64,000 bases of DNA from an uncultured delta proteobacterium. GTDB taxonomy: Bacteria > Myxococcota_A > Polyangia > Fen-1088. Where the stretch lies: the NCBI GenBank assembly GCA_963737265.1, contig CAVTRY010000007.1:256001-320000 (forward strand), written 5' to 3'. Within the stretch, counting starts at the first letter, position 1; the number at the start of each line of letters is the position of its first letter. Positions 37,644 through 56,274 of the stretch are shown piece by piece. The notes under the pieces are model-generated. The model was not told where the DNA came from. It saw nothing but the letters and a program-made list of their open reading frames with translations, and did no database searches. The translations under genes were made by a program, and so were the position numbers.

Positions 37644-39235
37644 GTCCGCCGCCTGTGCCCATCGGCCCGCCCGTGGACGACGGGTATCGCTGGCGCGTTC
37701 TTGGCGTGGTCATGCTGGGCACGGTAATGTCGGCGCTCGATTCGAGCATCGTCAACGTGTCGCTGCCCAACATGATGGCCAGCTTCGGCGCAAGCGTCGA
37801 CGACATCGAATGGGTCGTGACCGGTTACATGCTCGGCTTCTCGACCTTCATGCCCTTGACAGCGTGGCTTCGCGATCGCGTGGGTTACAAGGTGCTCTAT
37901 GTCGCCAGCCTCGCTGTTTTCATCGGTGGCTCCGCGCTGTGCGGACTCGCCCCCAACCTGCCGGCGCTGATCTTGGCTCGCGTGGTTCAAGCGTTCGGCG
38001 GCGGCGCCATCACCCCCACCGGCCTGGCCATGATCGCCGAGGTCTTCCCGCCCAAAGAGCGAGGGCGCGCGCTTGGCCTGTGGGGCGTCGGTGTCGTGGT
38101 TGGGCCCGCTTTCGGCCCCACCCTGGGCGGATACCTCACCGAGACGCTCGGCTGGCGCAGCATCTTCAACATCAACCTTCCCATCGGCGTAGTCGGCCTT
38201 CTCGCCGCCTCGCGGATACTTCGCGCCGACAAGCCGCACGCCGCGAGCCATCGTGGCTTCGATCTACCCGGGTTCGTGTTGCTCACCGCCTTTCTCGTCG
38301 GCGCACTACTCGGTCTCTCCAACGGCAATCGGGAAGGTTGGACCTCGAACTACGTCGTTGCCTGCGCGCTTGTGAGCAGCGTCTCGTTCGTGCTTTTCCT
38401 CGCCGTCGAAAGCATCGTCTCCGAGCGCATTCTCGATCTCGGGCTATTCCGCAAACCCCAGTTCACCGTGGCCATGGTGGTGACGTCCGCGCGCTCGGTC
38501 GCCTTGTTCGGTGGCATCTTTTTGTTGCCACTTTTCCTGCAGGATCTGATGGGCCGGAGCGAGATCGACACCGGGTTATTACTGCTTCCCGGCGCCTTGG
38601 TCATGGGGCTGGTCATGCTGGTCTCCGGCCGGATCGCGGATTGGCTCGGCACGCGCGTTTGCACGATTCTCGGCCTCTTGTTCATTGCTTGGTTCATGTG
38701 GACCTACCGCAGGCTCGACGTGACGACGAGCACGTGGGCCGTGCTCTACCCGACCCTGGTACGGGGTGTCGGGCTGGGTCTGCTGGTGACGCCGGTCATG
38801 ACCGCAGCTATCAATGCCGTGCCGACGCCGAAAGCCGGCATGGCTTCTTCGATGTTGAGCTTGATTCAACAAATATCGGGCTCGCTCGGCATCGCCGTGC
38901 TTGCCTGCGTACTCGGCCGGCGTGCCACCTTCCACCTCGCGGTGGTGGGTCAGGGCCTGGATGCCGCGCGACCGGCCCTCGCCGGCGCAACCCGAGCCCT
39001 CGCCACGCGCGCGCTCGAGCTTGGAACGCCGCCCGCCGCGGCAGGCCTAGTCGCGCGCTCGCTCGTCGCGCGCCAGATCGCCGGAGCGGCGTCGGTGCTC
39101 GCATTCAACGATGCCTTTCTAATCGGCGCGGCCATCGTCGGCGCGGGAGCCATCCCCGCGCTTTTTCTCGCATCCAAGTCGAAGTCCAAGGCACGCGCGC
39201 ACGGAGCCGCAGCGCAGGTCGAGGTTGTGGAGTAG
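37640..39235 (+). CDS. DHA2 (EmrB/QacA) MFS efflux permease
   Basis: LDSSIVNVSLP, GPTLGG and WRSIFNINLPIG motifs; about 14 TM segments. Confidence 0.93.
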   Translation: MSPPPVPIGPPVDDGYRWRVLGVVMLGTVMSALDSSIVNVSLPNMMASFGASVDDIEWVVTGYMLGFSTFMPLTAWLRDRVGYKVLYVASLAVFIGGSALCGLAPNLPALILARVVQAFGGGAITPTGLAMIAEVFPPKERGRALGLWGVGVVVGPAFGPTLGGYLTETLGWRSIFNINLPIGVVGLLAASRILRADKPHAASHRGFDLPGFVLLTAFLVGALLGLSNGNREGWTSNYVVACALVSSVSFVLFLAVESIVSERILDLGLFRKPQFTVAMVVTSARSVALFGGIFLLPLFLQDLMGRSEIDTGLLLLPGALVMGLVMLVSGRIADWLGTRVCTILGLLFIAWFMWTYRRLDVTTSTWAVLYPTLVRGVGLGLLVTPVMTAAINAVPTPKAGMASSMLSLIQQISGSLGIAVLACVLGRRATFHLAVVGQGLDAARPALAGATRALATRALELGTPPAAAGLVARSLVARQIAGAASVLAFNDAFLIGAAIVGAGAIPALFLASKSKSKARAHGAAAQVEVVE

Positions 39236-39241
39236 AGGCCG
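37929..39241 (+). repeat. First copy of a 1313-bp direct repeat (second copy 47708-49020)
   Basis: Colinear at offset 9779 with about ten substitutions. Confidence 0.95.
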
Positions 39242-39315
39242 CGACCGGGTACCTCCTGTCTATTGGTCATGCCAGTCGCACCCCTGCCCCACGCGGCTGC
39301 GCCGCGCCCGTCGCT

Positions 39316-39560
39316 GAGCCGCCCAAACTCTGGCCCGCACGACCGCCTCCCTCGCGACCTGGTGGCGAGGGCGGAGACTGGCTGAACTGACGGCACGTCG
39401 ACCAGGTCGGGATGGAGTCGACTGCCCTGCGTGCTCGAGAAAGACCCCGTCAGCCCCAGAAACCGGATCAAGCGCGCTGCGCCAACGCGATCGGGGCCAA
39501 CCTGATGCGTTCCGGCAGGGTTCTCCGACGCTCAAAACACCCTTTGATTTGCCTATGGTC
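39316..39560 (+). mobile_element. 3' end / oriIS of an IS91-family element
   Basis: Homologous to 55899-56145 (transposase tail PKLWPARPPP...GGDWLN* plus downstream region); ends TTTGATTTGCCTAT|GGTC. Confidence 0.8.
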
Positions 39561-39621
39561 ACGGCCCTCGTCTGTTCTTTTTACTTGCACTGCCTACGAG
39601 AGCTGCAACGGCATGTTGGAC
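39557..39621 (-). other. attC site 4, half only (truncated by the IS91 end)
   Basis: R'' GTCCAAC, then ATGCCGTTGCAGC; shares CTCGTAGGCAGTGCAAGTAAAAAGAACAG with attC3. Confidence 0.85.
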
Positions 39622-39645
39622 GGCGCGATGTTCCCGGGTGCTCGC

Positions 39646-40113
39646 CTACGAAGGCTTTTCCCCCGCCGCCATTGCTCTCACCTGCGCCACCAGAGCGTCG
39701 ATGTCAATACCACCGAGCGCGAGAGCGAGCTTGTATGCATCCAGGACCGCGGCGTGGATCTGCTCAAGATCCTCCAGCATCCGCATCCGCCCTTCTTCAG
39801 AGAATTTGGCGAATCCGTGCCGGCGGTAGAATGAATGGGCCAGTCGATTTCGTGCAGCCAAAGCCGTAGCGAACACGCCATCAGCATCATGGAACTGAGG
39901 GTGCTTGTCCTTGAGTCTCCGGAAGATCTGCCCGAGCGTGCTTCGATTGATCTTCCGCAGAATCTGCGTTGCCTCTTCCCCACGGTCGCCAAGGAAGGCG
40001 TCGATCTCCTCGGCCTGCAAGATCAGTAGGTGAGTGCCCAGCTCCGTCTCGAGGAGCTGGGCAGCCTGGGAAGCATCTCCGAACTTGCGGAATATCTCGT
40101 CCATCGATGGCAT
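39646..40113 (-). CDS. Cassette 4: HEPN-like helical protein
   Basis: AQLLETEL near the N-terminus and RNRLAH (Rx4H). Confidence 0.6.
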   Translation of the reverse strand: MPSMDEIFRKFGDASQAAQLLETELGTHLLILQAEEIDAFLGDRGEEATQILRKINRSTLGQIFRRLKDKHPQFHDADGVFATALAARNRLAHSFYRRHGFAKFSEEGRMRMLEDLEQIHAAVLDAYKLALALGGIDIDALVAQVRAMAAGEKPS

Positions 40114-40129
40114 GAGCCGATCTTCGTCC

Positions 40130-40253
40130 GTCCAACGCCTTGGCGTTAAGCTGCGGGCGGCCGTCTGCGACCGCCCATCTGCCCAGACGACCCGAATCAC
40201 TCCCTGTTCTTTTTACTTGCACTGCCTACGAGCGCTTCAACGGCCTGTTGGGC
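40130..40253 (-). other. attC site 3
   Basis: GCCCAAC-AGGCCGTTGAAGC...GCAGCTTAACGCCAAGGC-GTTGGAC. Confidence 0.92.
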
Positions 40254-40262
40254 GGCGCACAC

Positions 40263-41741
40263 TCAGAACGCGAAGGCCTGTTGTGGTGAGCGGGCCAATC
40301 TAGGTCGCGGACCGAGGCCTTCGGCTCGCAGTAGCGCATCCAGAGAAAGCGACTGCAACAAAGCCTTATTGATTGGCCTCTTAGCGTCCCAGAAGATTCG
40401 AGCTGTGAAGAATGCAGATGCCTTTTCGCCGTTGAGAACACACGCCAGCTCGGCGGCTTCTTCTTCTGTCTTGCATGGAAGGAAGTACGCCGTATCGTCA
40501 ACCATCACGGGCTGTCCATCGATTGGCCGAACAACAGTGAATGCGATCCTTTTGTACAATCCACAGATTGCGACTTTGTATGGCGAGAAGGAATAGTCGC
40601 CGACCCCGAAAATCGCGAATGGTGGCTGATCTCGATAGATGCTGCTCTTACGCGCATCCAGATGTTCACGGTGGGAAATGAGATAGGCCCACGTAGAGGG
40701 AGCACGGTCTCGAATAGCGCCAGTATTTTCGCCAAGCGACCTTTGTGGGACAACAACGCGACGACGCGCAGTCATACGCCCGTTGGCCAGATCGGATCCC
40801 TTGAGGAGCGGATAGACGTACTCACGTTCGAGGTCAACTCGCTTCCCCATGCCATTGACCAAGTGGTCATCCACGATCTCAAGTTCCATGATGCGAGCAC
40901 AGTCATGCTTGATCCCGGAACGCCATTCTACCTCGGACGGGCCTTCGAGATTACGGGTTGCAAGATATGCGTCGACGTCACTGCAGAGCTGTCCATCCAC
41001 GACGCCCATGTGTTTGGATGGCGCAGAAGCGGTGATGCTTTCGTAGACGGACCATTTGTGAGCGTGACCCTTTTGAAGCGCGGAACTCGGGCGGTGAACA
41101 GTAAGGAGAACGGCGTCGACAGCAGCTGCGAAGTGCATGCGCGCGTCGATCGCGTGAACGGAGCCTTGGAGGTTCCAGCGTTGCAAAGCAACGTGCTCCA
41201 TAACTTTGCGAGCGACCCCTGCCTTACAGAGCATCGCCAGTGTTGTGTCGCTACCGTTGGCGGCCTGTAACAAGCGCAGGAGCATCCATTCCGAGATGTC
41301 AAAGTTGCTCTTCCCGGTCATCGCATCAAGCCCGCTCAGGTTCTTGAAGTTGGTCTTCGCCGGAAGGTTGCCGGCATCGAGCGCGCCTAGCGCGGAGTTG
41401 GTCACCCAGGGTGGATTGCCGATGACAAGCACCGGGGACGGGAGGCGAGCCAGGACGTTCTCCCATTTCACTTGAAAGAAGTCGGCAACTGCGATCTCTG
41501 CGTCGTAGCCGGTGAGTGCGTCGCGGGCATCGCGCACGTAGGATTCATTCAGATCGAACCCGAAGAGTCGCGCCTTCGGGAACACGGCGGCAGCTGCCGC
41601 GAGGAACGCGCCGCGGCCGCACGTGGGCTCCAGAATCGAAGCGGGAACACGAACATTGCTCGCCAGCAAAGAAACCACTCCCTCGGCCAGTTCTTGCGGC
41701 GTTTGCCAGTCACCAAATTCGATTCGTTTCTCATCACGCAT
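40263..41741 (-). CDS. Cassette 3: N6-adenine DNA methyltransferase (gamma class)
   Basis: LEPTCGRGAF (motif I) precedes GNPPW (motif IV). Confidence 0.9.
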   Translation of the reverse strand: MRDEKRIEFGDWQTPQELAEGVVSLLASNVRVPASILEPTCGRGAFLAAAAAVFPKARLFGFDLNESYVRDARDALTGYDAEIAVADFFQVKWENVLARLPSPVLVIGNPPWVTNSALGALDAGNLPAKTNFKNLSGLDAMTGKSNFDISEWMLLRLLQAANGSDTTLAMLCKAGVARKVMEHVALQRWNLQGSVHAIDARMHFAAAVDAVLLTVHRPSSALQKGHAHKWSVYESITASAPSKHMGVVDGQLCSDVDAYLATRNLEGPSEVEWRSGIKHDCARIMELEIVDDHLVNGMGKRVDLEREYVYPLLKGSDLANGRMTARRRVVVPQRSLGENTGAIRDRAPSTWAYLISHREHLDARKSSIYRDQPPFAIFGVGDYSFSPYKVAICGLYKRIAFTVVRPIDGQPVMVDDTAYFLPCKTEEEAAELACVLNGEKASAFFTARIFWDAKRPINKALLQSLSLDALLRAEGLGPRPRLARSPQQAFAF

Positions 41742-41758
41742 GGTGCAAGGTCCAGGGT

Positions 41759-42421
41759 CTAGAGGCGAGCGACACCCTCGACAGAGCCGGCCTCGCGTAT
41801 CGCGTGACCGTACTGAAGTCTCCACTGGAGCGCGTTTGAGATGGTCAAGTAGCCCTGTGCGGGCGAGCTCTTGAGGACGTCGCGAGCAATATTGCGCAGC
41901 TCTATTTCTTCCACGGGAAGATTGCGGTCGGTCAGGTAAGCAACAACATCATCCTCATTGGCATCGTCGCTGATCATCTCCCGGAGCCTGCGAGTCATCG
42001 TGAAGTCGCCAGTTGCCCGCGCTTCAACGAAGATGGTGTGGAGGATTCTGAGATTAGCGGTTCGGTTTTGACGATCGTCCTTCTTGTCGTAGACGAAGAC
42101 CAAGAGGGAGTACCCGAGCCCAAAGATCTTCTGCCGAGCGGACTTGAACGGGCATGATGACTGCGGCTGCTTCTCGCTGGTGACCTTGATGTCGACGTTG
42201 ACGTCGGGGAAGTCGATACCCTTTGCCGAGTTGCCTTCTTCGAGGGCGTAGCGGTCTGCAATATAGGCCCGAAATTTCTGTTCCAGGTAGGTGCCGACGG
42301 CTTTGCCGTCGGTCACCCCGAAGAGACTCGGTTCGGCGTGCAGACTCTCCTTCTCAGAAGAACCGCGTGCTTCCTGCCGAAGCAGGGCTTCTGTGAGCTT
42401 ACGTTTCGCGGTGCGCGTCAT
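41759..42421 (-). CDS. Cassette 3: type II restriction endonuclease, NspV-like
   Basis: GVTDGKAVGTY.EQKF, IDFP...DIKVTS, QPQSSCPFKSARQKI and ISNALQWRLQY resemble R.NspV as recalled. Confidence 0.8.
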   Translation of the reverse strand: MTRTAKRKLTEALLRQEARGSSEKESLHAEPSLFGVTDGKAVGTYLEQKFRAYIADRYALEEGNSAKGIDFPDVNVDIKVTSEKQPQSSCPFKSARQKIFGLGYSLLVFVYDKKDDRQNRTANLRILHTIFVEARATGDFTMTRRLREMISDDANEDDVVAYLTDRNLPVEEIELRNIARDVLKSSPAQGYLTISNALQWRLQYGHAIREAGSVEGVARL

Positions 42422-42544
42422 GGTGAACAGACGTACAGTATGCTACCAGGTACTGGGACAACTGGCCACCGGGAACCGCACGCATGAGAAACACATGCAT
42501 CCACACCGCTTTGCGAGGTCCATCGTCGTCCGCCCAACGCTTTG

Positions 42545-44430
42545 ATCGGCATAGGGGCCTCGACAGATCGTCAAGGACCCCTGCCACACCACCCGGCGTG
42601 CGGGTCCGCACCGGGCGGTTCGGGAAGTTGAGGTTACGTGGCCAGCCGGGGTACCCCCAACTGGTCAAAGTAGCGAATGGGAAATGCCACGTTCATCATA
42701 CTAGCCGAGTTTTTCCACCAGCGGCGACAGTTCACGGCCACTACGCCTGCTGCGTCATGGGACATCCCCCGAGCCCGCAGTTCCCGATAGACGGTCGATT
42801 GTTGTCCCCAGTGTTTCAAGTGGAGAGCCCGTAGGCGACGGCGAATCCATTTGTCCAAGTTGCCAAAGACCCGAGGCGTGTCCGCGAGCCGGAAGTATTC
42901 CTTCCAACCACGCAGATATTCCCCCAGCCGTTTGCAGACCTGGCCAATGCTTTGCCCGCCCGTCCGCCTCGTGATGTTCCGGACTTTGTCCTTCATCGTG
43001 GCAAGGGCTTTGTCTGCCACCGCGCGCTTCACCGTTCCTTCCCGGTTTACCCAGAATGTGTAACCCAGGATTTTCCGGTTCCACGCCAAGCCCACCGCGC
43101 TTTTCGTTTCATTGACTTGAAGTCGCAGTCCCGCGTAGAGCCGCCGTAGCAGCCCCATCACACGCTCGCCCGCACGCCGCGACCGAAGGTATACGTTGCA
43201 GTCATCAGCGTACCGGCAGAATGCGTGCCCGCGTTTCTCCAGCTCCTTGTCCACTTCGTCGAGCAGCACGTTGGCTAGCAGCGGTGACAAGGGGCCGCCT
43301 TGTGGCGTTCCCTCGTACCGCTCCGTCGCCACCCCGCCAGCCATAATGCCGGCCCCGAGGTAACGCCGGATGAGCCCCAGCAAACGACGGTCGCCGATGC
43401 GTTTCGCCAGTCTTCCCATCAGCACGTCGTGGTTCACGCGGTCAAAGAATTGCTCCAAGTCCACGTCTACCACCCACTTGCGTCCGCCCTGGATATACCC
43501 CTGCGCCTCGACGATGGCGTCGTGCGCACGGTGCCCAGGCCGGAAACCGTGGCTGTGCTTTGAGAAGTCCGGGTCGAACATCGGTTGCAGAACCTGCAAT
43601 ACAGCCTGCTGGATGAATCGGTCGACCACCGTCGGAATGCCAAGCTTGCGCATTCCTCCGCTGGCCTTCGGTATGAGTTGCTCCTTCACAAGCGCGGGCT
43701 GGTACGTCCCCGCGAGCAGTTCCTCGCGCAGCCGTGGCCAGTATTCGCGCAGGTGTATCGGCAATTCATCCACCGTCATCCCGTCGATGCCGGGACTGCC
43801 CTTGTTCCTTCTCACTCGCTTCAGCGCGGCCAAAAGGTTCGGGCGTTCGCACACCCTCTCCATCAGGCCGCTCGCTCCCGAGCGCTCGTTTTCACACGTC
43901 GCCGTCGGCGCTTCCTCGCTTCGTTTTCCCGTCGGGGTTTCACCCCTATTTGAAAACGTTAGCTCCAGTTGCCTGGTCATCTGAGGCCGTTTGCTTCCGA
44001 GACGCATGTTCGTTTCGCTCTCCTTCTCGTTCAGTCCTTCGCATCGCCAAAGACTTCCGGCGTCGGTGATATCGCCGCCCCGGCTTCGACTTCGCTACTA
44101 CGACCTCTGCTGACTTCTCGCCCCGTCGCGTCCGCGCCGTCGCCCTTTCAGGCACAAGGCGAGATCTCCCCAGGTAAGTACGTCGTCCTTCCCCGCACGA
44201 CCGCCGGATCTACGTAGCCTGAGCTTTGACCATCGAGGCTTTGTGGCAACGGGCCCACTCGCCCCGCTCGGCGCCGCCTCTTATCCGGTTTTTGTTCATC
44301 AGCCCGCGGTTTCGCTCCCTGCTTCCTCCCCACGATTGGTCGCCCTTTCGCAGTTGCAGTTCGCTTCGTTTGGGATGGTCTCCTTTCGGGGGGACTTGCA
44401 CCCCCAAGACGACGCCCATGCTGGGCGCAC
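42545..44430 (-). mobile_element. Complete group IIC intron, 1886 nt, inserted in attC2
   Basis: 5' end GTGCGCCCAGCATGGGCG; short domain V GAACCGCCCGGTGCGGACCCGCACGCCGGGTGGT; 3' end CTATGCCGAT; flanks rejoin into an attC. Confidence 0.95.
42634..44007 (-). CDS. ltrA: Group II intron reverse transcriptase/maturase, no endonuclease domain
   Basis: LGIPTVVDR, GTPQGGPLSPLL, RYADD and GWKEYF motifs. Confidence 0.95.
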   Translation of the reverse strand: MRLGSKRPQMTRQLELTFSNRGETPTGKRSEEAPTATCENERSGASGLMERVCERPNLLAALKRVRRNKGSPGIDGMTVDELPIHLREYWPRLREELLAGTYQPALVKEQLIPKASGGMRKLGIPTVVDRFIQQAVLQVLQPMFDPDFSKHSHGFRPGHRAHDAIVEAQGYIQGGRKWVVDVDLEQFFDRVNHDVLMGRLAKRIGDRRLLGLIRRYLGAGIMAGGVATERYEGTPQGGPLSPLLANVLLDEVDKELEKRGHAFCRYADDCNVYLRSRRAGERVMGLLRRLYAGLRLQVNETKSAVGLAWNRKILGYTFWVNREGTVKRAVADKALATMKDKVRNITRRTGGQSIGQVCKRLGEYLRGWKEYFRLADTPRVFGNLDKWIRRRLRALHLKHWGQQSTVYRELRARGMSHDAAGVVAVNCRRWWKNSASMMNVAFPIRYFDQLGVPRLAT

Positions 44431-44551
44431 CCGTTCAGCGGCAAGCCCGCCGCCGAGTCGGCGCTTCTATTCTACACGATGTCCCTGCGGCGGGATTGTC
44501 AGCTGCAACGGCTTGTTCGACAGCGCGTCGGGGGCGCGGTTGGTTGCGCTC

Positions 44552-44926
44552 CTACTTCTTGGGCGGCTTCTTGCTCACCGTCATCGATCCCTTGGTCATA
44601 CGTGCGCCACCACCCTGGTCCAGCAGAACGGTCAACTCCGCCGAAGCGTCGACATTCAGCTTCTTCGGCGCGTTCGTCGAGATGACGATCGTCTGTTGGC
44701 CGAGATGAAAAGTGGTGGTACCAGACTCGATGGTGACGATCAGTGCTACGTTCGTCTGGTTCTTCACTTTCAGCTCAAGCTTGGCTCCTTCCTCCTTGGC
44801 CGTGAAGGTGAGGGCGAGCTGACCTGCGTCGAAGCCGTCCTTCAGCAGCACCGTTTCGCCGGCGAGGGCGGATCCGGCTGCCACGATCGTCATCACCAGC
44901 GCCATGACCATGAAGAGCTTTGTCAC
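44552..44926 (-). CDS. Cassette 2: small secreted beta-rich protein
   Basis: RBS AAGGAG, GTG start, signal peptide ending ALA, followed by attC. Confidence 0.75.
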   Translation of the reverse strand: MTKLFMVMALVMTIVAAGSALAGETVLLKDGFDAGQLALTFTAKEEGAKLELKVKNQTNVALIVTIESGTTTFHLGQQTIVISTNAPKKLNVDASAELTVLLDQGGGARMTKGSMTVSKKPPKK

Positions 44927-45115
44927 CGGAGGTCTCCTTTGTAGCCTCGCTGAGTCGACACGCTTGCCCTGTTGTTCGCTTACAGGGCCTGCGCGAGCAA
45001 GGAAACCGACCTATATCACGAACTCCCGGTCGAGCCTACCCTCAATGCCGGTTACTCAAGTGGTCCCCCAACGGTGAGATCGTAGGCGGCAGCGGTCCAT
45101 ACCACTCCCCAGTCT

Positions 45116-49020: not shown

Positions 49021-49528
49021 GGAGGCTGCTTTGCTATACATCCGTCCGAGCTGGATGGCGCCTTCGAGGGTGGACATCTTCTTATCGAAGGTCAGCGTGT
49101 TGGCGCCCTCGGAGCGATGGCGTGCGTGAATGAGGCGATTCGCGAGGCCGGCGCCGACGCCGGGATCGAGCGCAGCTGCCGCCTCGGACTTCCTTGGCTT
49201 CGGCGTTTTGGCGCGAGGTCTCGCCCAACTCTTCTGTCCTACCTGCCACGAGCGCTACGTTGTGGCCTGGAGCTGCAGAGGGCGCGGGTTCTGTCCAAGC
49301 TGTGGCGGCCGACGAATGAACGCGGGCGCGTTCAATCTGCTAGATCACCCCCTGCCCGAGGTGCCCTCGCGACAGTTTGTGATCACGGTGCCTTTCTCGC
49401 CGAGTTTCCGTTGGCCTTCGACCGGAAACTAAGTCCTGCGCATCTTCATCGACACCGTGGCGGCAAACGACCGCAGGCGTATGGCGGATCGATGCTGGAC
49501 GTCAACTACATTCACCCGGTGACGTCAA

Positions 49529-50377
49529 TTACATCGCCCCATTGTTGTCGGGGGTAGTTGTCGTTGGTTGATCGGTAGTTGTCGTAGTTGTCGCTGGGGT
49601 GGTGACGCCTCTCTTTCGTGCTTCTTCGCTGCGGTAGCTGGGGCCGGTCATCTCAAGGATGACCGCGTGGTGGACCAGTCGGTCGATGGCGGCGGCGGTG
49701 GTCATGGGATCCTTGAAAATGCGGATCCAATCGCTGAAGACCAGGTTGCTGGTGATGAGGACGCTCTTGCGTTCGTACCGCTCGGCCAGGAAGGTGAAAA
49801 GGACCTCCATTTCATCGCGGCTCTGCTGGACGTAGCCGATGTCGTCGAGGATCACGGCGTGATAGATGTTGAGCGCGGCCAGTTCTCGTTCCAGGCGAAG
49901 GTCGCGCTTGGCGGCCAGCAGCCTCTGGACAAGCGCGAAGGTCGGCGTGAAGAGGACCCGGTAGCCGCGCCGGATGAGTTCGTGGCCGATGGCAGCCACA
50001 ACGTGACTTTTGCCTCGGCCGGGCAGTCCGAAGACGAGCAGGTTCTCCCCACGTTCGACAAAGCCACCCTCACACAGGCTCGCCATCTGCTTCATCACCT
50101 TGGGTGACAGCCGACCACGTTCCAGGGTGGCCAGGGTTTTCTCCGTGGGAAGGTCCGAATCGCGAAGCGCGCGATCGATGCGACGGGTTCGGCGCTCTTC
50201 GATTTCCAGTTCGGCCAGGTGCTGGAGGTATTGGCTGAAGGTCCACCCCTCGCGGCTGGCCTTGATCGCGATCTCCTCGGCGTGCCGGGTGAAGGCAGGC
50301 AGCTTGAGCGCGCGCAGAAGCACCAGCAGAGCGTCGAGCGCGCTCGGCTTGACCGTGTCTACGGAGACGTTGGTCAT
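49529..50377 (-). CDS. istB: IS21 helper ATPase
   Basis: GLPGRGKSH, LDDIGY, ITSN and AAIDRLVHH motifs. Confidence 0.95.
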   Translation of the reverse strand: MTNVSVDTVKPSALDALLVLLRALKLPAFTRHAEEIAIKASREGWTFSQYLQHLAELEIEERRTRRIDRALRDSDLPTEKTLATLERGRLSPKVMKQMASLCEGGFVERGENLLVFGLPGRGKSHVVAAIGHELIRRGYRVLFTPTFALVQRLLAAKRDLRLERELAALNIYHAVILDDIGYVQQSRDEMEVLFTFLAERYERKSVLITSNLVFSDWIRIFKDPMTTAAAIDRLVHHAVILEMTGPSYRSEEARKRGVTTPATTTTTTDQPTTTTPDNNGAM

Positions 50378-51873
50378 GATGCCACCTGTTCGAGGAGCAG
50401 GTCGTAGGACGCGAGATCGACCAGCGGTGCTTCGAGCGCGGGGACGCTCGGTGGATAGGTACTGTCCGTCGCCTGTGTGCATCTCTTCTTGGTTGCATCC
50501 GCCGTCAAGATGGTCCCATCGGCAAGCAGAGTCGTGAGCGCTTGCTCGACATCGGCTTCCATCGTGCTGGCGGCCAGGTGAAGAATGCGCAGGTATTCAA
50601 CGTCGCCTTTGATTCCAGGCTTGGTCGCCTGGATCGCGTCGTATGCCCGCCTGAAAGTCACGCTTGGAAACAGCTCTTCTCGGTAGACGTAGCGAGAAAA
50701 CGCGCCCGGCTTGCGCACCAAAGACCAGATGACGTGCCGGTAGTCGATGCGCGCGGTCTTGCCTCGCAGCCTGTCGCAGGCCAATTCCAAGTTGTCGGCG
50801 TAGTACACCTCGATTCGGTGCTCGAACACGCGGACTCTCACCCGTGCGCCGATCAGCCTCGACGGCACCGAGTAGGCGCACGACTTGACCCGGATGGTGC
50901 TCGTCGACGCCACAGGTGCCGTCATTTCTGCGTACTCCGGCAAACGCTCCACCACCAGCGGCCGCATGGCTTCGATCTCCTCGGCGACGCGCGGGCCTCG
51001 CGAAGCGTTGGCTTTGCGGACCACCTTGGCTACGAAGCGTTCGTAGTCGTCTTGGTCCGCGAAGTCGCGGCTGCCACGCACCAGCAACGCTTGTTCAAGC
51101 CGACGCTTGAGCGCGCCGTTGCTGGCCTCCACATCGCCGTTTTGTTCCTTGGCCCCGACGGCTGTAGTTCGTGGCTCCATTCCGAGGTGCCGCATGACCG
51201 CCTTGTATTCATCGTTGAAAGTGCGATCTTCCGCATCGCGAGCGATCTGATGTGTCGCCGCCGTCGAGTGGTCGGTTTGGTGGTATCGCGGCACCCGCCC
51301 AAGCTGGAACAGCGCCGACTGGATCCCTCGCCGAAGCGCTGCCAGAGACTCCGACAGACACGCGGTCGCCCATTGCCAGTTCGAGTACGGCAGCACCGTC
51401 ACGCACAAAAGGTGCACAAATAGCTGGCCCACGATCGTCACACCAAGCTCCGCCGTCGACGTGAAGTCGGTTTGCGCGGCTTCACCGGGCCGATGCGCCT
51501 GCGTGAACCAAATCTCACGCGCAGGACCATGCTCGGCCCGCCAGCGACGGATTCGCCGCTGCATTGTCCGAAGATGGCTCTCGTTGTACCGCCCTGGCTG
51601 CTTCGCCTCCAGCAGCTCCAGCACCGTCTGAGCCTCCAGCCCAGGCGTTTCCTCCAGCAACTTGGCCACGGCTGGCCAGTCCTCGGCGAACGCGTCAGGG
51701 CGCGTCCGCCACCACCGCGGCTGCCGTAGCTCCGACGGTAGCTTGCCCGCGGCGATGTATCGCCGCCCTGTCTTCCGGTCCATGCCCGCCTTCATGGCGG
51801 CCTGGCCTACTTTTCCAATCTTGCTCATCTCTTCCATCAAACGCCTCACTTGGGCGTCGGTGACCGGCTTCAA
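50374..51873 (-). CDS. istA: IS21 transposase
   Basis: GEAAQTDF, QTDH, NGDVE and YSVPSRLIG motifs; ATGA overlap with istB. Confidence 0.95.
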   Translation of the reverse strand: MKPVTDAQVRRLMEEMSKIGKVGQAAMKAGMDRKTGRRYIAAGKLPSELRQPRWWRTRPDAFAEDWPAVAKLLEETPGLEAQTVLELLEAKQPGRYNESHLRTMQRRIRRWRAEHGPAREIWFTQAHRPGEAAQTDFTSTAELGVTIVGQLFVHLLCVTVLPYSNWQWATACLSESLAALRRGIQSALFQLGRVPRYHQTDHSTAATHQIARDAEDRTFNDEYKAVMRHLGMEPRTTAVGAKEQNGDVEASNGALKRRLEQALLVRGSRDFADQDDYERFVAKVVRKANASRGPRVAEEIEAMRPLVVERLPEYAEMTAPVASTSTIRVKSCAYSVPSRLIGARVRVRVFEHRIEVYYADNLELACDRLRGKTARIDYRHVIWSLVRKPGAFSRYVYREELFPSVTFRRAYDAIQATKPGIKGDVEYLRILHLAASTMEADVEQALTTLLADGTILTADATKKRCTQATDSTYPPSVPALEAPLVDLASYDLLLEQVAS

Positions 51874-52706
51874 AGGTGCCTCCTGCCCGCTTGCGGGCTT
51901 GGAGGTCTACCTCACGGTCACCGTCGCGCCTCAAAGCGGGGCGACGTAGCTGTCGTCTTTGGGGAGATGTAATTGTCGCTCAGCAGATCGAGGCATTCCC
52001 GGCAGCAAGCATGGCGCGGTCGCAGTCATCCAGTGCGCCAACAGCGACCTGCGCTGTAACCCTCATTCTACCGGGCGGTGGCGACGTCGCTTCCCACCTG
52101 CACGTGGCGCGCGGTGTGCCGCCGGGCCGAACGACAGTGCGCCTGGCCGCAACCGAAAACCTGGGCTCGCAGGTCGTTCCTTATCTCAACCGGCTTTCTT
52201 TGCTGCTGTTCTCGATGGGCAAGCCACCCTTGACGGTGTGCCAGCACTGCTCGACACGCATGAGCTGCTTGTAGCCAAGCGCCAGCCAAGGCCATCCTAG
52301 AGAAGAACGGCTTTTCCGACGTCACCAATGCCGGAGGGCTCAAGGACATGCCGCCCCGCTAGTCTTGTGTGACACGTTCACGTACGAACGGCAGCACCTT
52401 CTTGTGTCTGGCTCAACGTGCATGCCCACGTGCGCGTGGGCGCCAATGACCGCGACGGACTCGAGCACCTGTGCCGGTACCTTGCCAGGACGCCGATTGC
52501 GAACGCGGTCTGCAAGTAGGCGCCCCAGTGCCAGCGCCGCGGGTGGAGCAACCCTCGGCGCTTCACCTCGGTGGCAATCTCCTCGTCACTCAGACCTGCC
52601 GAGAACAGCGCCGCGATGGCTTGCTCCACCTCGACGGAGGATCGATACCATCCGGACCCGCGTCCCAGCCGCGCAACGGTCAGCTCGCTCACCGCTCCCG
52701 TCTGCC

Positions 52707-53390
52707 CTACATCGTCGCGAACAAGCCTTGCAGCATGCCGGCGAGGGCGGTCAGAAGTTGCTCCACGTCGAGCGCGGGCGGATGGTGCACGAGCGTGCGG
52801 CCTACGTTGCCCAAGGTCACGCACGCGAGCCAGGCCATGGGGCGAACACTGTCCTCCGTGCGATTGAAACGTGTGGCGAAGATTCTGGTGGTGGCTTCCG
52901 AGAAGGACTGAATCTCCGCGCCCGATATCTCTTCCTGCAGCTCTTCCGAAATCGCTCGCAGGCGCGCAGGCGCATCCGCGTGCAGCTCGGCCATTGCACG
53001 CGTCAATCCGACCATGACATCGACCATGTCCAGTCCAGGATCCGCAAGGCGAGCCAGCGTGTGCTGAATGAGAGGCATCACCTGGTCGCGGTGTCGTTCT
53101 TGTAGTGCCGCGAAAATCGCCTCCTTGTTGGGAAAGTATTGGTAGAGCGAGCCGATGGACACGCCGGCGCGTTCCGCGACCGCATTGGTGGTCACCCCGA
53201 GCCTGCCGTGCTCTACCAGCAATCGGCCGGCCGCCTCGACGATGGCGTCCACGGTTTGGCGGGACCGATCTTGCGCCGGGTCTCGTCGTGGACGACGGTC
53301 GAGCCGAGGTCCCGGAATGTGAGCCGGCGCTGCCCTTATGGGGCGTGCCTGTCGCGTTCCGATCGGTGTTTTGCGGGTTTTGCCGTTCAT
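52707..53390 (-). CDS. TetR/AcrR family regulator
   Basis: TTNAVAERAGVSIGSLYQYFPNK HTH. Confidence 0.93.
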   Translation of the reverse strand: MNGKTRKTPIGTRQARPIRAAPAHIPGPRLDRRPRRDPAQDRSRQTVDAIVEAAGRLLVEHGRLGVTTNAVAERAGVSIGSLYQYFPNKEAIFAALQERHRDQVMPLIQHTLARLADPGLDMVDVMVGLTRAMAELHADAPARLRAISEELQEEISGAEIQSFSEATTRIFATRFNRTEDSVRPMAWLACVTLGNVGRTLVHHPPALDVEQLLTALAGMLQGLFATM

Positions 53391-53479
53391 GGGGAAAGGC
53401 GAGTTTTCACGGTAAAAACAAACGTGCATGCTTTCAGCGAGAACCTAGCCCGCACAGCGGGCAGCAAGGAGCGAGTGCC

Positions 53480-54070
53480 ATGCAACCATCGAAGGCAACC
53501 GAGAGCAAGATCGTTCACACCTGTCCAGTCTGGATTGGCCACCTATTGGCTAGCCCTCTGCGACGCCTGTTCGAGAACCCGGCCACCGTTGTCCTGCCGT
53601 TGCTCAGACCCAAGGATCGCGTGCTCGAGCTTGGCCCGGCGCTGGGATTCTTCACCCTCCCGGTCGCCGAGGCGCTGGGTCCTGAAGGAAAGCTCGTGTG
53701 CGTCGACGTGCAGGAAGGCATGCTGCGACGATTGCGCAGACGCCTCGAGAAACGCGGGCTCGCCGGCCGAACCGAGTTGCGCCAATGCACGCACGAAGAT
53801 CTCGGGCTTGCTGACCTCGAAGGAACCTGCGATCTCGTGCTCGCGCTTCACGTGATCCACGAGACCGTTTCGCCTGCCGGAACCATGAAGGCACTGGCCA
53901 GATGCTTGAAGCCCGGCGGTCGCCTGTTGCTGGTTGAACCGCCCGGGCATTGCTCGCCCGCCGTTTTTCAATCAGAGGTCGAGGCAGCGGGAGCAGCAGG
54001 CCTGGAACGAGCTCCGCACCCGCGCGCCGAGGGCCGCAGGAACCTCGCGCTGTGGAGGCGACCCGCATAG
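53480..54070 (+). CDS. Class I SAM-dependent methyltransferase
   Basis: VLELGPALG, VDVQ and LKPGGRLL motifs; RBS AAGGAG. Confidence 0.9.
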   Translation: MQPSKATESKIVHTCPVWIGHLLASPLRRLFENPATVVLPLLRPKDRVLELGPALGFFTLPVAEALGPEGKLVCVDVQEGMLRRLRRRLEKRGLAGRTELRQCTHEDLGLADLEGTCDLVLALHVIHETVSPAGTMKALARCLKPGGRLLLVEPPGHCSPAVFQSEVEAAGAAGLERAPHPRAEGRRNLALWRRPA

Positions 54071-54199
54071 GCAACCCTCTTGATGTGCACTGCCTACGTT
54101 CCGTTCGGAGTGCGGATACTGGAGGGGCGCGACAAGTAGGTGGGATTCGAAGTGCCGTGAACGATGTGAAATGAGCTGTAGATAACTCGACCACAGCCT

Positions 54200-54715
54200 T
54201 CGTCGGACGACGACTTCACCGGCGTGTCAATCGTGAAATGCTTGGCAGCGCGGAATCGCAAGGCGATGCGCCAGTTGGTGCTGGCGGTGGGGCCAGCGAT
54301 GTTGCGGGCGGTTCGCAAAGTGCTCGGGGGCGCGACGGCGCGGAAGACGTATTGCAGGACGCGGTCGAGGGACCGCTTCATGCTATCCGAGGATTCGGTG
54401 GCCCGTTCAGAGTCGCGCCCGCGACGGCAGGCGACTGCAGCTCCGGCGCCAAAGAAAGACGACGCCGCAGCGCCGTTCGCCGAAGCGAATGCCGTGCGTC
54501 GGGCGGGCGAGTTACGACAGGCCGTGGGGCTCTATCAGTCATTGCGACGGCAGTTCCCGGAATCGGGCCAAGCGTTGCTTGCCTCGCTGTCGGTCGCGGA
54601 TATTCTTCTCGATCTCGGCGATCCTGCGGGCGCCATCGGGGCGTATGATTCGTATCTGAATCGCAACCCGCCCGGCGCGCTGACCGAAGAAGCCTTGTTC
54701 GGCCGAGCCGAACTG
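54200..54715 (+). pseudogene. Fused remnants: ECF sigma factor N-terminus and TPR tail of a FecR/anti-sigma-type protein
   Basis: AVRKVLG/AEDVLQDA (region 2) abuts FAEANAVRRAG...GALTEEALFGRA. Confidence 0.55.
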
Positions 54716-54849
54716 CGCTCAGATCGATTTTTAGCCCACCCCACGGTGCCTGGCGCAGGTAGCGCGCGAAACGCGGGGTCGATAGAAGTTCGCAGGTTCG
54801 CCTCCAGCGCTCGCTTGGCATCTTGTGTGGGCGCGACCTTGTAGGCTTT

Positions 54850-55053
54850 GTAGTCGCAACTTTTTCGCGCCGTCTCCGCATCGACGTGTTTACGCAAAGG
54901 CGCTAGCACCTCGGTCCCCGCGGCACGCAGCTTGCGCAAATGGCGAATATTGAGCAGCACGAGGCCCGCCTCCACCGCCCACCAGCACGGCGGCACCGGA
55001 TCGAGAATGTTCGCGGTGGCTATGAACATCACCTTCGACAGATCGAACGGCAG
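54850..55053 (-). pseudogene. Gene scraps: Lon protease (~21 aa) and possible M48/Ste24 peptidase N-terminus
   Basis: PFDLSKVMFIATANILDPVPP is a Lon motif; LNIRHLR...VDAET.RKS.DY is Ste24-like. Confidence 0.55.
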
Positions 55054-55088
55054 CAACTTCTGTAACCCGCTGACCGACATCCTCCTTC

Positions 55089-56141
55089 GTGGAGGCAGCG
55101 GCATGCGCAAAACCTGCGACCGGTTACACCTATGCCCGCCGGGAGCCGGAAAAGACTGCCCTTTTCCAGGTGCTCCAGCAGCACCTTCTGACCTTCGAGC
55201 AAGAGTGGACCGACAAGTCCGACGGCCGCACGCTGCCCAGCTTCGTGACTGACGAGCTGCACGACTTCCTAGGCTGTGGAATCTTGGCGCGAGGCTTCGC
55301 ACAACTTCTTTGCAAGACCTGCCACGAGCGGTATGCGGTCGCTTGGAGCTGCAAGGGTCGCGGCTTCTGTCCAAGCTGCGGCGGCAGACGCATGAACGCG
55401 GGCGTCCTGACTCTGGTCGACTACGTCCTGCCCGAAGTGCCCATCCGACAATTCGTGCTGACCGTGCCTTTCTCGCTGAGATTTCCCTTGGCCTCCGACG
55501 GAAAATTGCTCGGCCAAGTCCTGCGCATCTTCATCGACACCGTGGCGTCCAACTATCGCAGGCGCCTGGCAGATCGGGGTATTGCCGACGGCGAGTCTGG
55601 CGCCGTCACGCGATCATCCCCCCTCCGCGTCGTCATGTCGTCAGATATTCGGGGGTCATCTCAGCACACTCCAGCCTCCGCAGCCAAGTCGTCCCAGTCC
55701 CGGCCGCGGCCACGCCCGAGGAAAACGACAAGCCTTCACTGCTCCTTTCACACTACATTTCTTGGAGCCAGCTCCTAAAAAAGACATTCGACATCGACAC
55801 GATCTGCCCGTGCTGCCAAGAGCCCGCTGCGCCTCATCGCCATGATCGAGACCGAGGACACCATCAAAAAGATTCTCTCTGCCATGGGGCTACCCATCGA
55901 GGCGCCCAAGCTCTGGCCCGCACGGCCGCCTCCCTCGCAATCTGGTGGCGAGGGCGGAGACTGGCTGAACTGACGGCACCTCGACCAGGGCGGGATGGAG
56001 TAGACTGCCCTGCGTGCTCGAGAAAGACCCCGTCAGGCCCCAGAAACCCGGTCAAGTGCGCTGCGCCAACGTGATCGGGGCCGACCTGATGCGGTCCGAC
56101 AGGGTTCTCCAACGCTCAAAACACCCCTTCGAAATGCCTAC
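55089..56141 (+). mobile_element. Internally deleted IS91-family element with oriIS end
   Basis: Zinc domain SCKGRGFCPSC, QFVLTVP; jumps to PPPRRHVVRYSG...W.QLLKKTFDID.CP; HUH/Y core missing; ends TTCGAAATGCCTAC|GGTC. Confidence 0.88.
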
Positions 56142-56274
56142 GGTCAAGCGCCCCTGGATGCAGGATCTCGTGGTGCGCTGAACCTGAGACGCTTCACTTC
56201 AAGGCAGATTTGCGATGCCGCCAGTCAATGAAAAACATCATCTGGTCTGAGCTTTTTCATGGTACTTTCAGCCG

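Follow-up and report, generated by a model that had tools for sequence, protein, structure and literature searches.

How a four-cassette integron array came to lie between two copies of the 3′ end of a chromosomal efflux gene is the question raised by this locus of a soil metagenome-assembled genome (25 contigs, 7.6% contamination), which was analyzed in a 64,000-nucleotide stretch referred to here as the window. The DNA around the array is best read as an island assembled by several mobile-element events, in which ISCR/IS91-type elements probably moved the integron piece; the sequence cannot prove the precise course of these events.

The emrB locus and its empty counterpart in relatives

The island lies downstream of a native efflux operon, and the two are composed of the following features, together with the integron and insertion-element parts described below.

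35891..39235, plus strand: native marR, emrA-like, and emrB-like operon (Pfam matches; synteny with relatives), with the MarR gene first and the emrA-like (HlyD family) gene at 36267-37643, both plus strand and upstream of emrB
37640-39235, plus strand: complete emrB-like gene, 531 aa (MFS_1, Pfam)
37929..39244, plus strand: repeat copy 1, the 3′ 1,307 bp of emrB and 9 bp (self-BLAST)
39242..39280, no strand: orphan 39 nt, origin unassigned
47708..49023, plus strand: repeat copy 2 (emrB′), 5′-truncated, sharing a GCT overlap with the integrase gene fragment intI′ (self-BLAST)
49021-49186: 166 nt, origin unassigned, between emrB′ and the decayed element IS91-X
52707-53429, minus strand: TetR-family gene
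53105-54070, plus strand: methyltransferase gene
54224-54844, plus strand: TPR protein gene
56147..61627, no strand: remainder of the island (Pfam, PADLOC)
56275-57423: AAA_14/DUF4143 ATPase gene (PADLOC PDC-S01)
61639..62262, plus strand: isochorismatase-family gene, native right neighbor of emrB

An empty emrB site was sought in relatives and found in G010, G002, and G008, where the marR-emrA-emrB stretch is syntenic and 77-78% identical and where, in all three loci compared, emrB is followed by a short spacer and then the isochorismatase gene. The homology of the window to the relatives resumes at 61628 (BLAST), and everything between emrB and the isochorismatase gene constitutes a 22.4-kb mosaic island (39236-61627). 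Its right part contains the TetR, methyltransferase, and TPR genes (52707..54844) upstream of the second ISCR-like copy, followed by the segment 56147..61627, which is absent from the emrB locus of the relatives compared and in which the ORFs other than the ATPase gene gave no family match.

The duplication of emrB that the initial annotation had described as bracketing the array is borne out. Positions 37929-39244 and 47708-49023 form a 1,316-bp direct repeat with 99.16% identity and 11 mismatches (self-BLAST of the window), which encloses 8,463 bp of unique DNA, and the repeated unit, consisting of this unique DNA and one copy of the emrB 3′ end, amounts to 9,779 bp. Copy 2 carries most of the derived differences, in the form of GC-to-AT transitions, a bias that also fits slow in-place decay of a pseudogene. 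The sequences downstream of emrB and emrB′ are unrelated from 6 nt past the stop codon onward: emrB is followed by the 39 nt, for which blastn-short of the genome returned the self match alone, and an oriIS remnant, and emrB′ is followed by the 166 nt and a different decayed copy that is 77-79% identical. Thus, either the source of emrB′ differed from the resident locus or a deletion came later, and this divergence needs one extra event whatever the model.

The integron segment

The unique DNA between the emrB copies is mainly an integron segment read on the minus strand.

39562..39633, minus strand: truncated attC (attC4), read from sequence and fold
39634..40130, minus strand: cassette 4, a single ORF (39646-40113, or to 40200) of no assigned function
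40125..40258, minus strand: complete attC of ~130 nt, read from sequence and folded
40263..42421, minus strand: cassette 3, a type II restriction-modification pair (NCBIfam, PADLOC), methyltransferase 40263-41825 and endonuclease 41759-42421, both minus strand
42544..44439, minus strand: group II intron of 1,896 bp inside the attC that follows cassette 2 (Pfam, Rfam), with a reverse transcriptase/maturase ORF at 42634-44007, minus strand (RVT_1 and GIIM)
44525..45128, minus strand: cassette 2, ORF 44552-44926
45119..45222, minus strand: complete attC (fold)
45223..47325, minus strand: cassette 1, two minus-strand ORFs, 45380-46423 (no assigned function) and 46314-47321 (weak UDG-superfamily match)
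47326..47534, minus strand: attI region (by position and similarity), between the intI stop codon and the first cassette
47535..47710, minus strand: intI 3′ fragment (intI′), the last 57-58 codons and stop, oriented as the cassettes

Of attC4, R″ (GTCCAAC), the 5′ arm, and a 24-nt loop remain, but the 3′ arm is cut down to 8-11 nt and R′ is missing; positions 39572-39626 are 93% identical to 40204-40258, and eight related sites occur elsewhere in the genome. The complete attC at 40125..40258 shows 92-93% identity to sites in the arrays on contigs C17 and C11, and that at 45119..45222 folds with a z-score of −3.5, with equally good folds in 0 of 200 shuffles. Among the cassettes, the pair in cassette 3 was recognized by NCBIfam NF052465 (327.5 bits) and by the PADLOC models MTase_II (503.8 bits) and REase_II (311.1 bits), the region of cassette 2 (44431-45128) is 99.86% identical to C11:1170195-1170892, part of another array, and the ORF of cassette 4 had no match in Pfam, NCBIfam, or PADLOC.

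The intron (Rfam RF02001, 100.6 bits at 44178-44349, minus strand) has a copy with 99.8% identity at C14:93212-95107. In three genomic arrays, a group II intron encoding a reverse transcriptase/maturase lies just past the 3′ arm of an attC stem, a position that recalls the group IIC-attC introns. In the part of the source consulted (PMC3001079), the IIC-attC introns occupy the bottom strand and run against the cassette genes, whereas the intron in the window is co-oriented with the cassette ORFs.

The attI region is 97-98% identical to the flank of a complete intI at C17:93509-94588 (TIGR02249, 455.7 bits) and to C11, and the intI 3′ fragment is likewise 97-98% identical to two other genomic loci. 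A search of the whole assembly for the 5′ piece of intI, which the initial annotation had suggested might lie elsewhere in the genome, found none.

ISCR/IS91-like elements in the island and in the genome

Three ISCR/IS91-like copies lie in the island, all in one orientation, and one of them is interrupted by another insertion sequence.

39281..39560, plus strand: 3′ remnant with the last 25 tnpA codons and an oriIS-like end ...CCTATGGTC
49187..52504, plus strand: IS91-X, a decayed copy (tblastn)
49493..51985, minus strand: IS21-family element of 2,493 bp, istA 50374-51873 and istB 49529-50482 (Pfam)
55018..56146, plus strand: second copy, with an internal deletion of ~620 bp and an oriIS-like end ...CCTACGGTC

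The full-length element of this family is 1,919 bp long and encodes a 501-aa protein with Zn_Tnp_IS91 and Y2_Tnp domains. Its best NCBIfam match is ISCR clade Ia, at 291.8 bits over residues 7-472 against a model cut-off of 925, and it reaches 86.5 of the 125 bits required by the canonical IS91 model; the ISCR-like nature proposed for the elements is accordingly supported at the domain level. The genome contains 42 matches to the transposase and three intact full-length tnpA genes (two on C23 and one on C8). The remnant at 39281..39560 is 92-95% identical to other copies and includes the whole of the last ~110 nt, the part of the oriIS end conserved across 25 aligned copies. IS91-X, the DNA of which is 77-79% identical to other copies, preserves TnpA residues 64-171, 164-193, and 318-348, lacks the first 63 codons and the 3′ end, and is split by the IS21-family element, which is flanked by a 6-bp target duplication, GATCGA; this element has 18 other full-length copies in the genome at ≥99.8% identity. 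Self-BLAST aligned 39316-39561 with 55899-56146 (248 bp, 91.1% identity) and 49187-49491 with 55263-55576 (77.4% identity).

The order given in the initial annotation, emrB, IS91 3′ end, half attC, four cassettes, attI, intI fragment, emrB′, and IS91 remnant, is correct. The remnant after emrB′ is present, but it had been merged with a second element: the oriIS end at 56146 belongs to the internally deleted copy at 55018-56146 and not to the copy that follows emrB′. emrB′ lies upstream of an ISCR-like copy, on the terIS side, which is the side mobilized by read-through. Elsewhere in the genome, copies with a fixed oriIS end carry 0 bp (C14:444505), 792 bp (C14:449187), 1,297 bp (C23:545023), or at least 1,736 bp (start of C23) of the 3′ part of the same upstream glycoside-hydrolase gene, with downstream flanks that differ wherever both are visible. 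This nested series is the apparent footprint of read-through transposition by the ISCR-like family in this genome.

Terminal tetranucleotides and the joints

GGTC had been reported to follow both oriIS-like ends; it is present at 39557-39560 and 56143-56146, but as the last four bases of the ends themselves. In complete oriIS ends, these four bases are GGTC in 17 of 22, GGCC in 4, and GGGC in 1, as drawn from 25 of 29 BLAST hits, the remaining 4 being partial or at a contig edge. GGCC occurs in the four 'CGAATCGCC' copies, so the tetranucleotide co-varies with the subfamily and seems to belong to the element, not to the target sites. emrB′ starts with GCTC at 47708, and the other left ends that could be read start with TGGC..., GCCAGG..., and ATGC..., none of the three being GNTC or sharing a tetranucleotide with GCTC. 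GNTC is found at 2.2% of window positions, or ~9% when four possible joint positions are allowed. The supposed preference for GNTC targets is not supported by these data.

Nor does the joint at which emrB′ and its element are proposed to have entered intI show a GGTC-like target. Past the breakpoint, the intact intI reads TTGGGAATG, with neither GGTC nor GGCC, and the intI′/emrB′ joint contains a 3-nt microhomology, GCT, which is typical of illegitimate recombination. At the other end of the integron segment, the oriIS remnant joins attC4 within the attC 3′ arm without filler, if the 11 nt after GGTC are the start of this arm. A cut at this place is compatible with an attC hairpin that imitates terIS.

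Possible origin of the island

The entry of a circle through emrB, combined with a read-through rolling-circle origin of that circle, is the best explanation of the 9,779-bp unit, at a little under even confidence. The circle most likely came from read-through: an earlier event of this kind may have placed emrB′ into intI together with the oriIS-bearing element, and the oriIS remnant could then have been driven in trans by an intact transposase gene, of which the genome has three, in a one-ended rolling-circle reaction, with read-through running leftwards over emrB′, intI′, and the array and stopping within the attC 3′ arm. The resulting circle would have carried emrB′, the 39 nt, the ISCR/IS91-like remnant of 280 bp, in which the conserved oriIS end is complete, and a platform without integrase consisting of the half attC, four cassettes, attI, and the last 58 intI codons. 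Insertion into the resident emrB by a single Campbell-type homologous crossover would leave the complete emrB on the left and the 5′-cut emrB′ on the right. The layout is L-A-[insert]-A′-R, with a native left repeat copy and the isochorismatase gene to the right of copy 2 only, which matches circle entry by homologous recombination. Entry of a ~9.8-kb circle in this manner is the best reading of the repeat, and the rolling-circle origin of the circle is plausible but unproven. The geometry agrees with the recombination into emrB that the initial annotation had envisaged; the divergence past the stop codon does not follow from it and adds a further event.

A rather unlikely alternative is that the three novel joints (emrB stop+6/39 nt, oriIS remnant/attC4, and intI′/emrB′) arose in a donor replicon or strain by microhomology-mediated or otherwise non-transpositional breaks, and that the product, whether a circle, a piece of plasmid, or transformed DNA, later entered by way of the homologous emrB sequence; the ISCR-like remnants would be mere bystanders. 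The GCT microhomology and the intact intI sequence at that joint are in keeping with such illegitimate joins, as is the orphan DNA at both emrB ends. Furthermore, the genome is crowded with repeats, including the IS21-family and ISCR-like copies counted above, so that remnants lie near many genes. The integron platform occupies differing chromosomal sites in four relatives, and a second 5′-cut intI on C11 has no adjoining ISCR-like copy; truncation of the integrase therefore occurs without these elements. Against these points, the end of the inserted segment matches the conserved oriIS end to the base, emrB′ is exactly on the read-through side of an ISCR-like copy, and the family makes read-through products in the same genome.

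Tandem one-ended transposition without homologous recombination, in which a 16.6-kb unit (39561-56146) moved beside the GGTC of a resident oriIS remnant downstream of emrB, is improbable. This unit, comprising the array, attI, intI′, emrB′, the decayed copy, the tetR-methyltransferase-TPR genes, and the copy ending at 56146, would start in attC4 and finish at an oriIS end. Co-oriented clusters like that of the island occur elsewhere: an 11-kb part of C14 contains three copies, a 6.5-kb part of C23 contains two, and one contig of relative G008 has 12 (11 full-length) on its plus strand, which suggests insertion beside existing copies. In this scenario, the emrB duplication would be incidental. 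However, a unit bearing emrB′ must land by chance ~330 bp from the resident emrB; two differing emrB-downstream contexts are still required; and the copy at 56146 has its 620-bp internal deletion, while the DNA past 56146 would have to be what formerly bordered the remnant.

An assembly artefact, in which two strains or haplotypes 0.8% apart in emrB were stitched into one contig, is very improbable: the 25 contigs, the contamination, the 11 differing sites, and the public runs, which yielded only short assembled contigs at ~2-5x depth on unique parts and contain no piece bridging the joints among the matches listed, would fit it, but the contig crosses 2.5-kb IS21 copies 99.8-100% identical to 18 others, implying long reads that would easily span a 1.3-kb repeat, the intI′/emrB′ and oriIS/attC4 joints must occur on some molecule anyway, and a short-read contig of run X1 begins at 47712, as expected with two left contexts of emrB in that sample.

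Relation to known systems

Toleman et al. (2006) reportedly put forward a model for ISCR1-linked complex class 1 integrons. The present locus resembles these integrons in having an IS91-family element without inverted repeats beside an integron and a segment present in two copies, one to either side of the insertion, arrangements that the consulted part of PMC3575428 explains by read-through rolling-circle transposition and rescue by homologous recombination. In contrast, the repeat here is the end of a chromosomal efflux gene and not the 3′-conserved segment, the integron is not of class 1, with its 5′-cut integrase gene in the same direction as the cassettes, the cargo is an array with attI and not a resistance gene, the element stays far below the cut-off of the ISCR clade Ia model (291.8 of 925 bits), and the host genome was assembled from a soil metagenome.

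As described in the portion of PMC13181058 consulted, termination of IS91-family elements fails in 1-14% of events, circles arise in which oriIS is linked to the point of termination, no target is duplicated, and up to 40 kb can be moved. The elements studied here share with IS91, IS801, and IS1294 a Y2 HUH transposase in which a zinc domain is N-terminal, an oriIS end that is distinct from terIS and bears a conserved tetranucleotide, and nested copies with variable upstream DNA, and no target duplication was seen in the flanks of ISCR-like copies that were read. They differ in ending with GGTC or GGCC, compared with 5′-CTTG, GTTC, or GTCC, in each of which the second base is T, in the same portion of that source (PMC13181058), in scoring below the cut-off of the IS91 model (86.5 of 125 bits), and in that their transposition is inferred from sequence alone.

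The array also resembles CALIN or degraded integrons, as it has no working integrase of its own and a complete integron integrase is present elsewhere, on C17. Unlike these, it retains attI and the intI 3′ end, and a rearrangement that can be traced accounts for its position. The locus adds an environmental case to a class of rearrangement that is already known. The attI and intI 3′ end of the array have stayed 97-98% identical to the complete platform, and the array may therefore still be served in trans.

Structure of the island downstream of emrB

Domain scans of the window identified a MarR/HlyD-type/MFS operon with a complete emrB-like gene (531 aa, end at 39235) and a second, 5′-cut copy at 47708-49014, referred to here as emrB′. 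The marR-emrA-emrB locus is present in same-genus species at 77-80% identity, and in all three relatives compared (G010, G002, and G008) the emrB stop codon is followed by a short spacer and then by an isochorismatase-family gene, which corresponds to 61639-62262 in the window; the empty emrB site that the initial annotation proposed to look for in relatives is therefore represented in all three. Because this neighbor directly follows emrB in the relatives, the DNA from 39236 to about 61627 (22.4 kb) is inserted, a mosaic island of which the flagged structure takes up the two thirds on the left. A 20-nt stretch just before 61628 (…CTGGAGTAA) was considered as a relic of the emrB end and set aside, its likeness to the relatives being too short to count. 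Self-comparison of the window aligned 37929-39244 with 47708-49023 (1,316 bp, 11 mismatches), 39316-39561 with 55899-56146 (91% alike), and 49187-49491 with 55263-55576 (77% alike). The order claimed previously, from emrB through an IS91-like 3′ end, a half attC, four cassettes, attI, an intI fragment (intI′), and emrB′ to an IS91-like remnant, holds.

Features of the island, from left to right
after complete emrB: 6-9 shared bases, then 39 nt found nowhere else in the genome
39281-39560: ISCR/IS91-like 3′ remnant, 280 bp, ending ...CCTATGGTC
39562-39633, minus (cassette) strand: truncated attC (attC4), in which a 24-nt loop separates R″ (GTCCAAC) and the 5′ arm from what is left of the 3′ arm, its first 8-11 nt
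minus strand: cassette with an unknown ORF
40263-42421, minus strand: cassette with a type II restriction-modification pair
minus strand: small cassette with a 99.86% identical counterpart in a different array, on contig C11 of the same genome
minus strand: cassette with two ORFs
42544-44439: group II intron, 1,896 bp, just past the 3′ arm of one attC, with RT/maturase (Rfam RF02001, 100.6 bits)
attI region plus the 3′-terminal 57-58 codons of intI; two other loci share this stretch at 97-98% identity
47708 onwards: emrB′
directly after emrB′: 166 nt of unknown origin
after the 166 nt: decayed ISCR-like copy, starting at codon 64, with internal losses and without its 3′ end
within the decayed copy: IS21-family element, 2,493 bp, a clean insertion with a 6-bp target duplication (GATCGA)
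between the decayed and the second ISCR-like copy: tetR/methyltransferase/TPR block
second ISCR-like copy, which has lost 620 bp internally and has an oriIS end of its own at 56146
last 5.5 kb of the island: further foreign genes

The single IS91 remnant previously placed after emrB′ resolves into two separate ISCR-like copies, one decayed and one internally deleted and ending at 56146. The IS21-family element carries the integrase-core gene istA (PF00665/PF22483) and the ATP-binding gene istB (PF01695) between the two GATCGA copies, and 18 other full-length copies of it are found in the genome. In the last part of the island, an AAA_14/DUF4143 ATPase at 56275-57423 scores 265.5 bits with PDC-S01, a candidate defence family of PADLOC, and the large ORFs beside it (57765-60636) gave no family match. 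Elsewhere in the window, self-comparison showed a tandem repeat at 6191-6483 with a 78-bp period (about 3.7 copies, 90-93% identity).

Integron platform, cassettes, and group II intron

The window contains an attI region and an array of attC-ended cassettes co-oriented with intI, of which only the last 57-58 codons are retained; its attI region is 97-98% identical to that beside a complete intI. This complete integron integrase (TIGR02249, 455.7 bits; cut-off 265) is encoded on contig C17 of the same genome, the only one of the two other loci sharing the attI/intI end at 97-98% identity that has it. The integrase scores 346.5 bits against the class 1 equivalog NF011946 (cut-off 435), its best match is the general integron model, and the record titles of the nearest integrases read Myxococcales or delta proteobacterium. 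No qac or sul family was found among the island ORFs by Pfam, NCBIfam, and PADLOC scans. The intI gene on C11 is likewise 5′-cut and adjoins a topoisomerase gene. Sequences upstream of the integrase in four relatives (loci L021, L022, L023, and L025) match four different contigs of the present genome (C23, C14, C12, and C11); the chromosomal site of the integron platform is therefore not conserved in this group.

R″/R′ cores and paired arms, identified by eye, define the attC sites, the boundaries of which are approximate. Among six stretches folded, those at 44410-44550 and 45105-45245 gave z values of -1.8 and -3.5, and those containing attC4 and the 40125-40258 attC folded no better than shuffled sequences (z of +0.57 and +1.25). 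The 11 nt that follow GGTC at the end of the 3′ remnant were read as attC sequence rather than filler because they pair with the 5′ arm.

The restriction-modification pair (40263-42421) is complete and forms one integron cassette. The permafrost metagenome run X4 has a 2,338-nt contig that corresponds to 40220-42544 (about 96%) and is bounded by the two attC sites; this indicates that the cassette circulates beyond the present genome. A 1.9-kb unit containing two ORFs, of 185 and 362 aa and both without a Pfam match, starts inside an attC of the class of attC4; its copies lie in the arrays on C17 and C11 (L017:4996-6891 and L018:6347-8242, 100% identical, and L017:10008-11895, 97.6%), and the attC-class module from its start occurs also twice on contig C13. 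Such a unit may represent either a cassette that was duplicated or an element that targets attC.

The RT ORF (42634-44007) and the Rfam match (44178-44349) of the group II intron are on the minus strand, like the cassette ORFs. Such co-orientation was found in all three arrays of the genome (window 42544-44439, L017:7173-9170, and L018:8247-10212), and a fourth intron copy, 99.8% identical, is located at C14:93212-95107. According to PMC3001079, group IIC-attC introns occupy the bottom strand and so run counter to the cassette genes; in contrast, the window intron is on the same strand as the cassettes and thus departs from that group in strand.

ISCR-like element family

The full-length element measures 1,919 bp, and its 501-aa product combines Zn_Tnp_IS91 and Y2_Tnp domains, both of which score above their cut-offs in the full copy at L019:5847-7352 (PF14319, 55.5 bits; PF04986, 81 bits). 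The window itself holds transposase fragments only, namely PF14319 at 55089-55778 and pieces found by tblastn. The best curated model, that of ISCR clade Ia (NF052416), gave 291.8 bits with a cut-off of 925, and the canonical IS91 equivalog (NF033538) gave 86.5 bits with a cut-off of 125; since both scores are below cut-off, the element is considered an ISCR-like relative belonging to neither named clade. Its ends are unlike each other (left ATGCAAACGCAC..., right ...CCCCTATGGTC) and are not inverted copies, and the flanks of C14:444505-446421 (...GGCCTCGGT / AGCTCATCC) show no target duplication, as judged from the two independent left flanks available. The genome has three full-length tnpA genes with an open frame, so the transposase can act in trans. 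The family is present in 11 of the 12 other genomes of the genus, and one contig of G008 (C9, 7.6-130.7 kb) carries 12 transposase copies, 11 of them full-length and 92-93% identical to the query, all on the plus strand.

The last ~110 nt of the 3′ end are conserved among 25 aligned copies (25 of 29 BLAST matches, the four left out being partial or at contig edges). Complete ends terminate in GGTC (17 of 22), GGCC (four, which form one subfamily in the alignment), or GGGC (one), and the sequence beyond varies by copy. The tetranucleotides given for the IS91 family in PMC13181058 are CTTG, GTTC, and GTCC, whereas that of the present element is mostly GGTC and could belong to either the target or the element. 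Some of a ~55-nt insert that characterizes one subfamily is present in the 3′ remnant in the window. This GC-rich mini-insert (…CTAGGGCCTGCCC…CCCCTGCCCCACGCGGCTTCGCCGCGCCCGTCGC) occurs at 39281-39315 and at 18 other places in the genome, in both orientations and at several different positions, mostly inside ISCR-like transposase gene copies. Identity to the main family is 92-95% for the 3′ remnant, whereas the 5′ part of the copy after emrB′ shows only 77-79%; on these values and the subfamily insert, it was judged unlikely that the same element stands behind both emrB copies.

Elsewhere in the genome, four copies with one common oriIS end carry increasing lengths of upstream DNA, all from the 3′ part of one glycoside-hydrolase family 2 gene, and their downstream flanks differ wherever both are visible.

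Nested copies and the upstream DNA that they carry
C14:444505: 0 bp
C14:449187: 792 bp
C23:545023: 1,297 bp
C23 start: at least 1,736 bp

By its form, this nested series is the footprint expected of one-ended (read-through) transposition, for which it provides indirect evidence. For IS91, IS801, and IS1294, PMC13181058 describes termination that fails in 1-14% of events, circles joining oriIS to terIS, insertion that leaves the target unduplicated, and transport of up to 40 kb.

Junctions

The initial annotation had argued for transposase cutting from a shared GNTC. The motifs themselves, GGTC at 39557-39560 and 56143-56146 and GCTC at 47708 where emrB′ starts, are as described, and GGTC does prevail among the tabulated genomic oriIS ends (17 of 22); however, the three other left ends read in the genome begin TGGC..., GCCAGG..., and ATGC... 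instead of GNTC. Moreover, GNTC occurs at 2.2% of window positions and at about 9% when four equivalent joint positions are allowed, and the tetranucleotide argument is therefore not supported. At the intI′/emrB′ joint, GCT is common to both parents, and intact intI runs on TTGGGAATG, without GGTC or GGCC. Given this 3-nt microhomology, illegitimate joining would be no worse a fit than a transposase cut. The 5′ part of intI, expected elsewhere if intI had been split by an insertion, was sought by tblastn with the complete integrase, and no separate 5′ fragment was found in the assembly; the reciprocal side of the proposed insertion is thus missing.

At the left joint, the conserved end of the oriIS remnant adjoins the interior of the attC4 3′ arm. 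A read-through stop at or after the hairpin and an ordinary attC insertion with loss of the 5′ part of the element would fit this arrangement equally well. An integrase-made break was rejected, since the break lies inside the 3′ arm and not at the G/TT of R′.

As stated in the initial annotation, the two emrB copies diverge right after the stop codon: their ends part 6 nt past it, into unrelated DNA on both sides, and native sequence follows neither. This divergence requires, in any model, either two downstream contexts in the population or one further deletion, the left end of which would by definition coincide with the end of the repeat. Ten of the 11 differences between the copies are in the coding part, where eight of the 10 fall on third codon positions and two alter the protein. 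Polarized with three outgroups, about seven changes are derived in copy 2, all GC-to-AT transitions, and two in copy 1, a pattern that would fit import from a diverged strain or slow in-place pseudogene decay alike. The first 371 bp of the repeat are without differences. Placement of a crossover from the 11 differences was attempted and abandoned, because copy-1- and copy-2-derived alleles interleave with no switch point. That the structure is not recent follows from the decay of the transposase gene and the subsequent insertion of IS21; together with the 0.8% divergence of the emrB repeats, these led us to judge the joints to be old.

Proposed formation of the repeat-bracketed segment

The history was reconstructed from one metagenome-assembled genome. 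As the last step, a circle carrying emrB′ would enter the resident emrB by a single homologous crossover, and this entry is probable because it is the simplest account of a repeat around unique DNA, of native context on the outer sides only, and of the co-location of emrB and emrB′. The circle would arise by read-through from the oriIS remnant, an origin that is supported by the behavior of the ISCR-like family and by the exact coincidence of the segment end with the oriIS end. None of the joints bears a diagnostic signature, and the whole chain, from a read-through-born circle to crossover into emrB, is held only tentatively, at somewhat short of an even chance.

Non-transpositional joins followed by homologous recombination would share the final step and accommodate the microhomology at intI′/emrB′; the coincidence with the oriIS end speaks for read-through instead, and this alternative seems rather unlikely. 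Tandem one-ended transposition of a 16.6-kb unit beside a resident remnant is considered improbable. A strain-chimeric assembly is very improbable. The matches listed from four public runs, which comprise short assembled contigs at low depth, include no piece bridging the four joints, and an exact 24-nt pattern from the emrB 3′ end had no match in the metagenome contigs; in the best-matching run, a contig starts at 47712, which would be consistent with two left-hand emrB contexts. Two further schemes were discarded: tandem duplication, because the second copy matches the first over only 1,316 bp of the 9,779-bp period, and a local model (a read-through product inserted into a nearby integron, then deletion), because the native emrB neighbor lies to the right of emrB′ and not beside the complete emrB.

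Relation to known systems and biological meaning

Among known systems, the ISCR1-linked complex class 1 integron comes closest. A read-through rolling-circle model with rescue by homologous recombination was reportedly put forward by Toleman in 2006. One-ended transposition of the IS91 family with such rescue (PMC3575428) is the closest known mechanism. Unlike the ISCR1 system, which combines a class 1 integrase, a duplicated qacEdelta1-sul1 3′-conserved segment, and ISCR1, the present structure comes from a soil metagenome-assembled genome, its integrase is not class 1 and is co-oriented with the cassettes, the repeated segment is the chromosomal gene emrB, the cargo is the array with attI, and the element is a distant ISCR relative with a GGTC end; it is thus not a member of that system. 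Among the titles and abstract openings covered, none described environmental bacteria in which ISCR/IS91 had captured a chromosomal cassette array.

A broader reading, which is doubtful at present, is that ISCR-like elements in these soil Myxococcota-like bacteria routinely copy integron platforms, each consisting of attI, a cassette array, and a dead integrase stub, to new sites. The platforms would be fixed there by homologous recombination via co-captured host gene fragments, one integrase would serve several dispersed arrays in trans, and attC hairpins would stop read-through. If true, it would provide a way in which "sedentary" chromosomal integrons are multiplied and moved independently of the clinical ISCR1/class 1 system. 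The main reading of the structure, by contrast, is narrower, and its practical value is limited. If it is right, it would bear on the origin of cassette arrays without their own integrase and on the differing chromosomal places of "sedentary" integrons in related species, as in the four relatives here. The ISCR1-type route of read-through rolling-circle capture and rescue by homologous recombination would then not be an invention of clinical plasmids; chromosomal integrons in uncultured soil bacteria would be subject to it as well, and it could relocate the attI-plus-array module.
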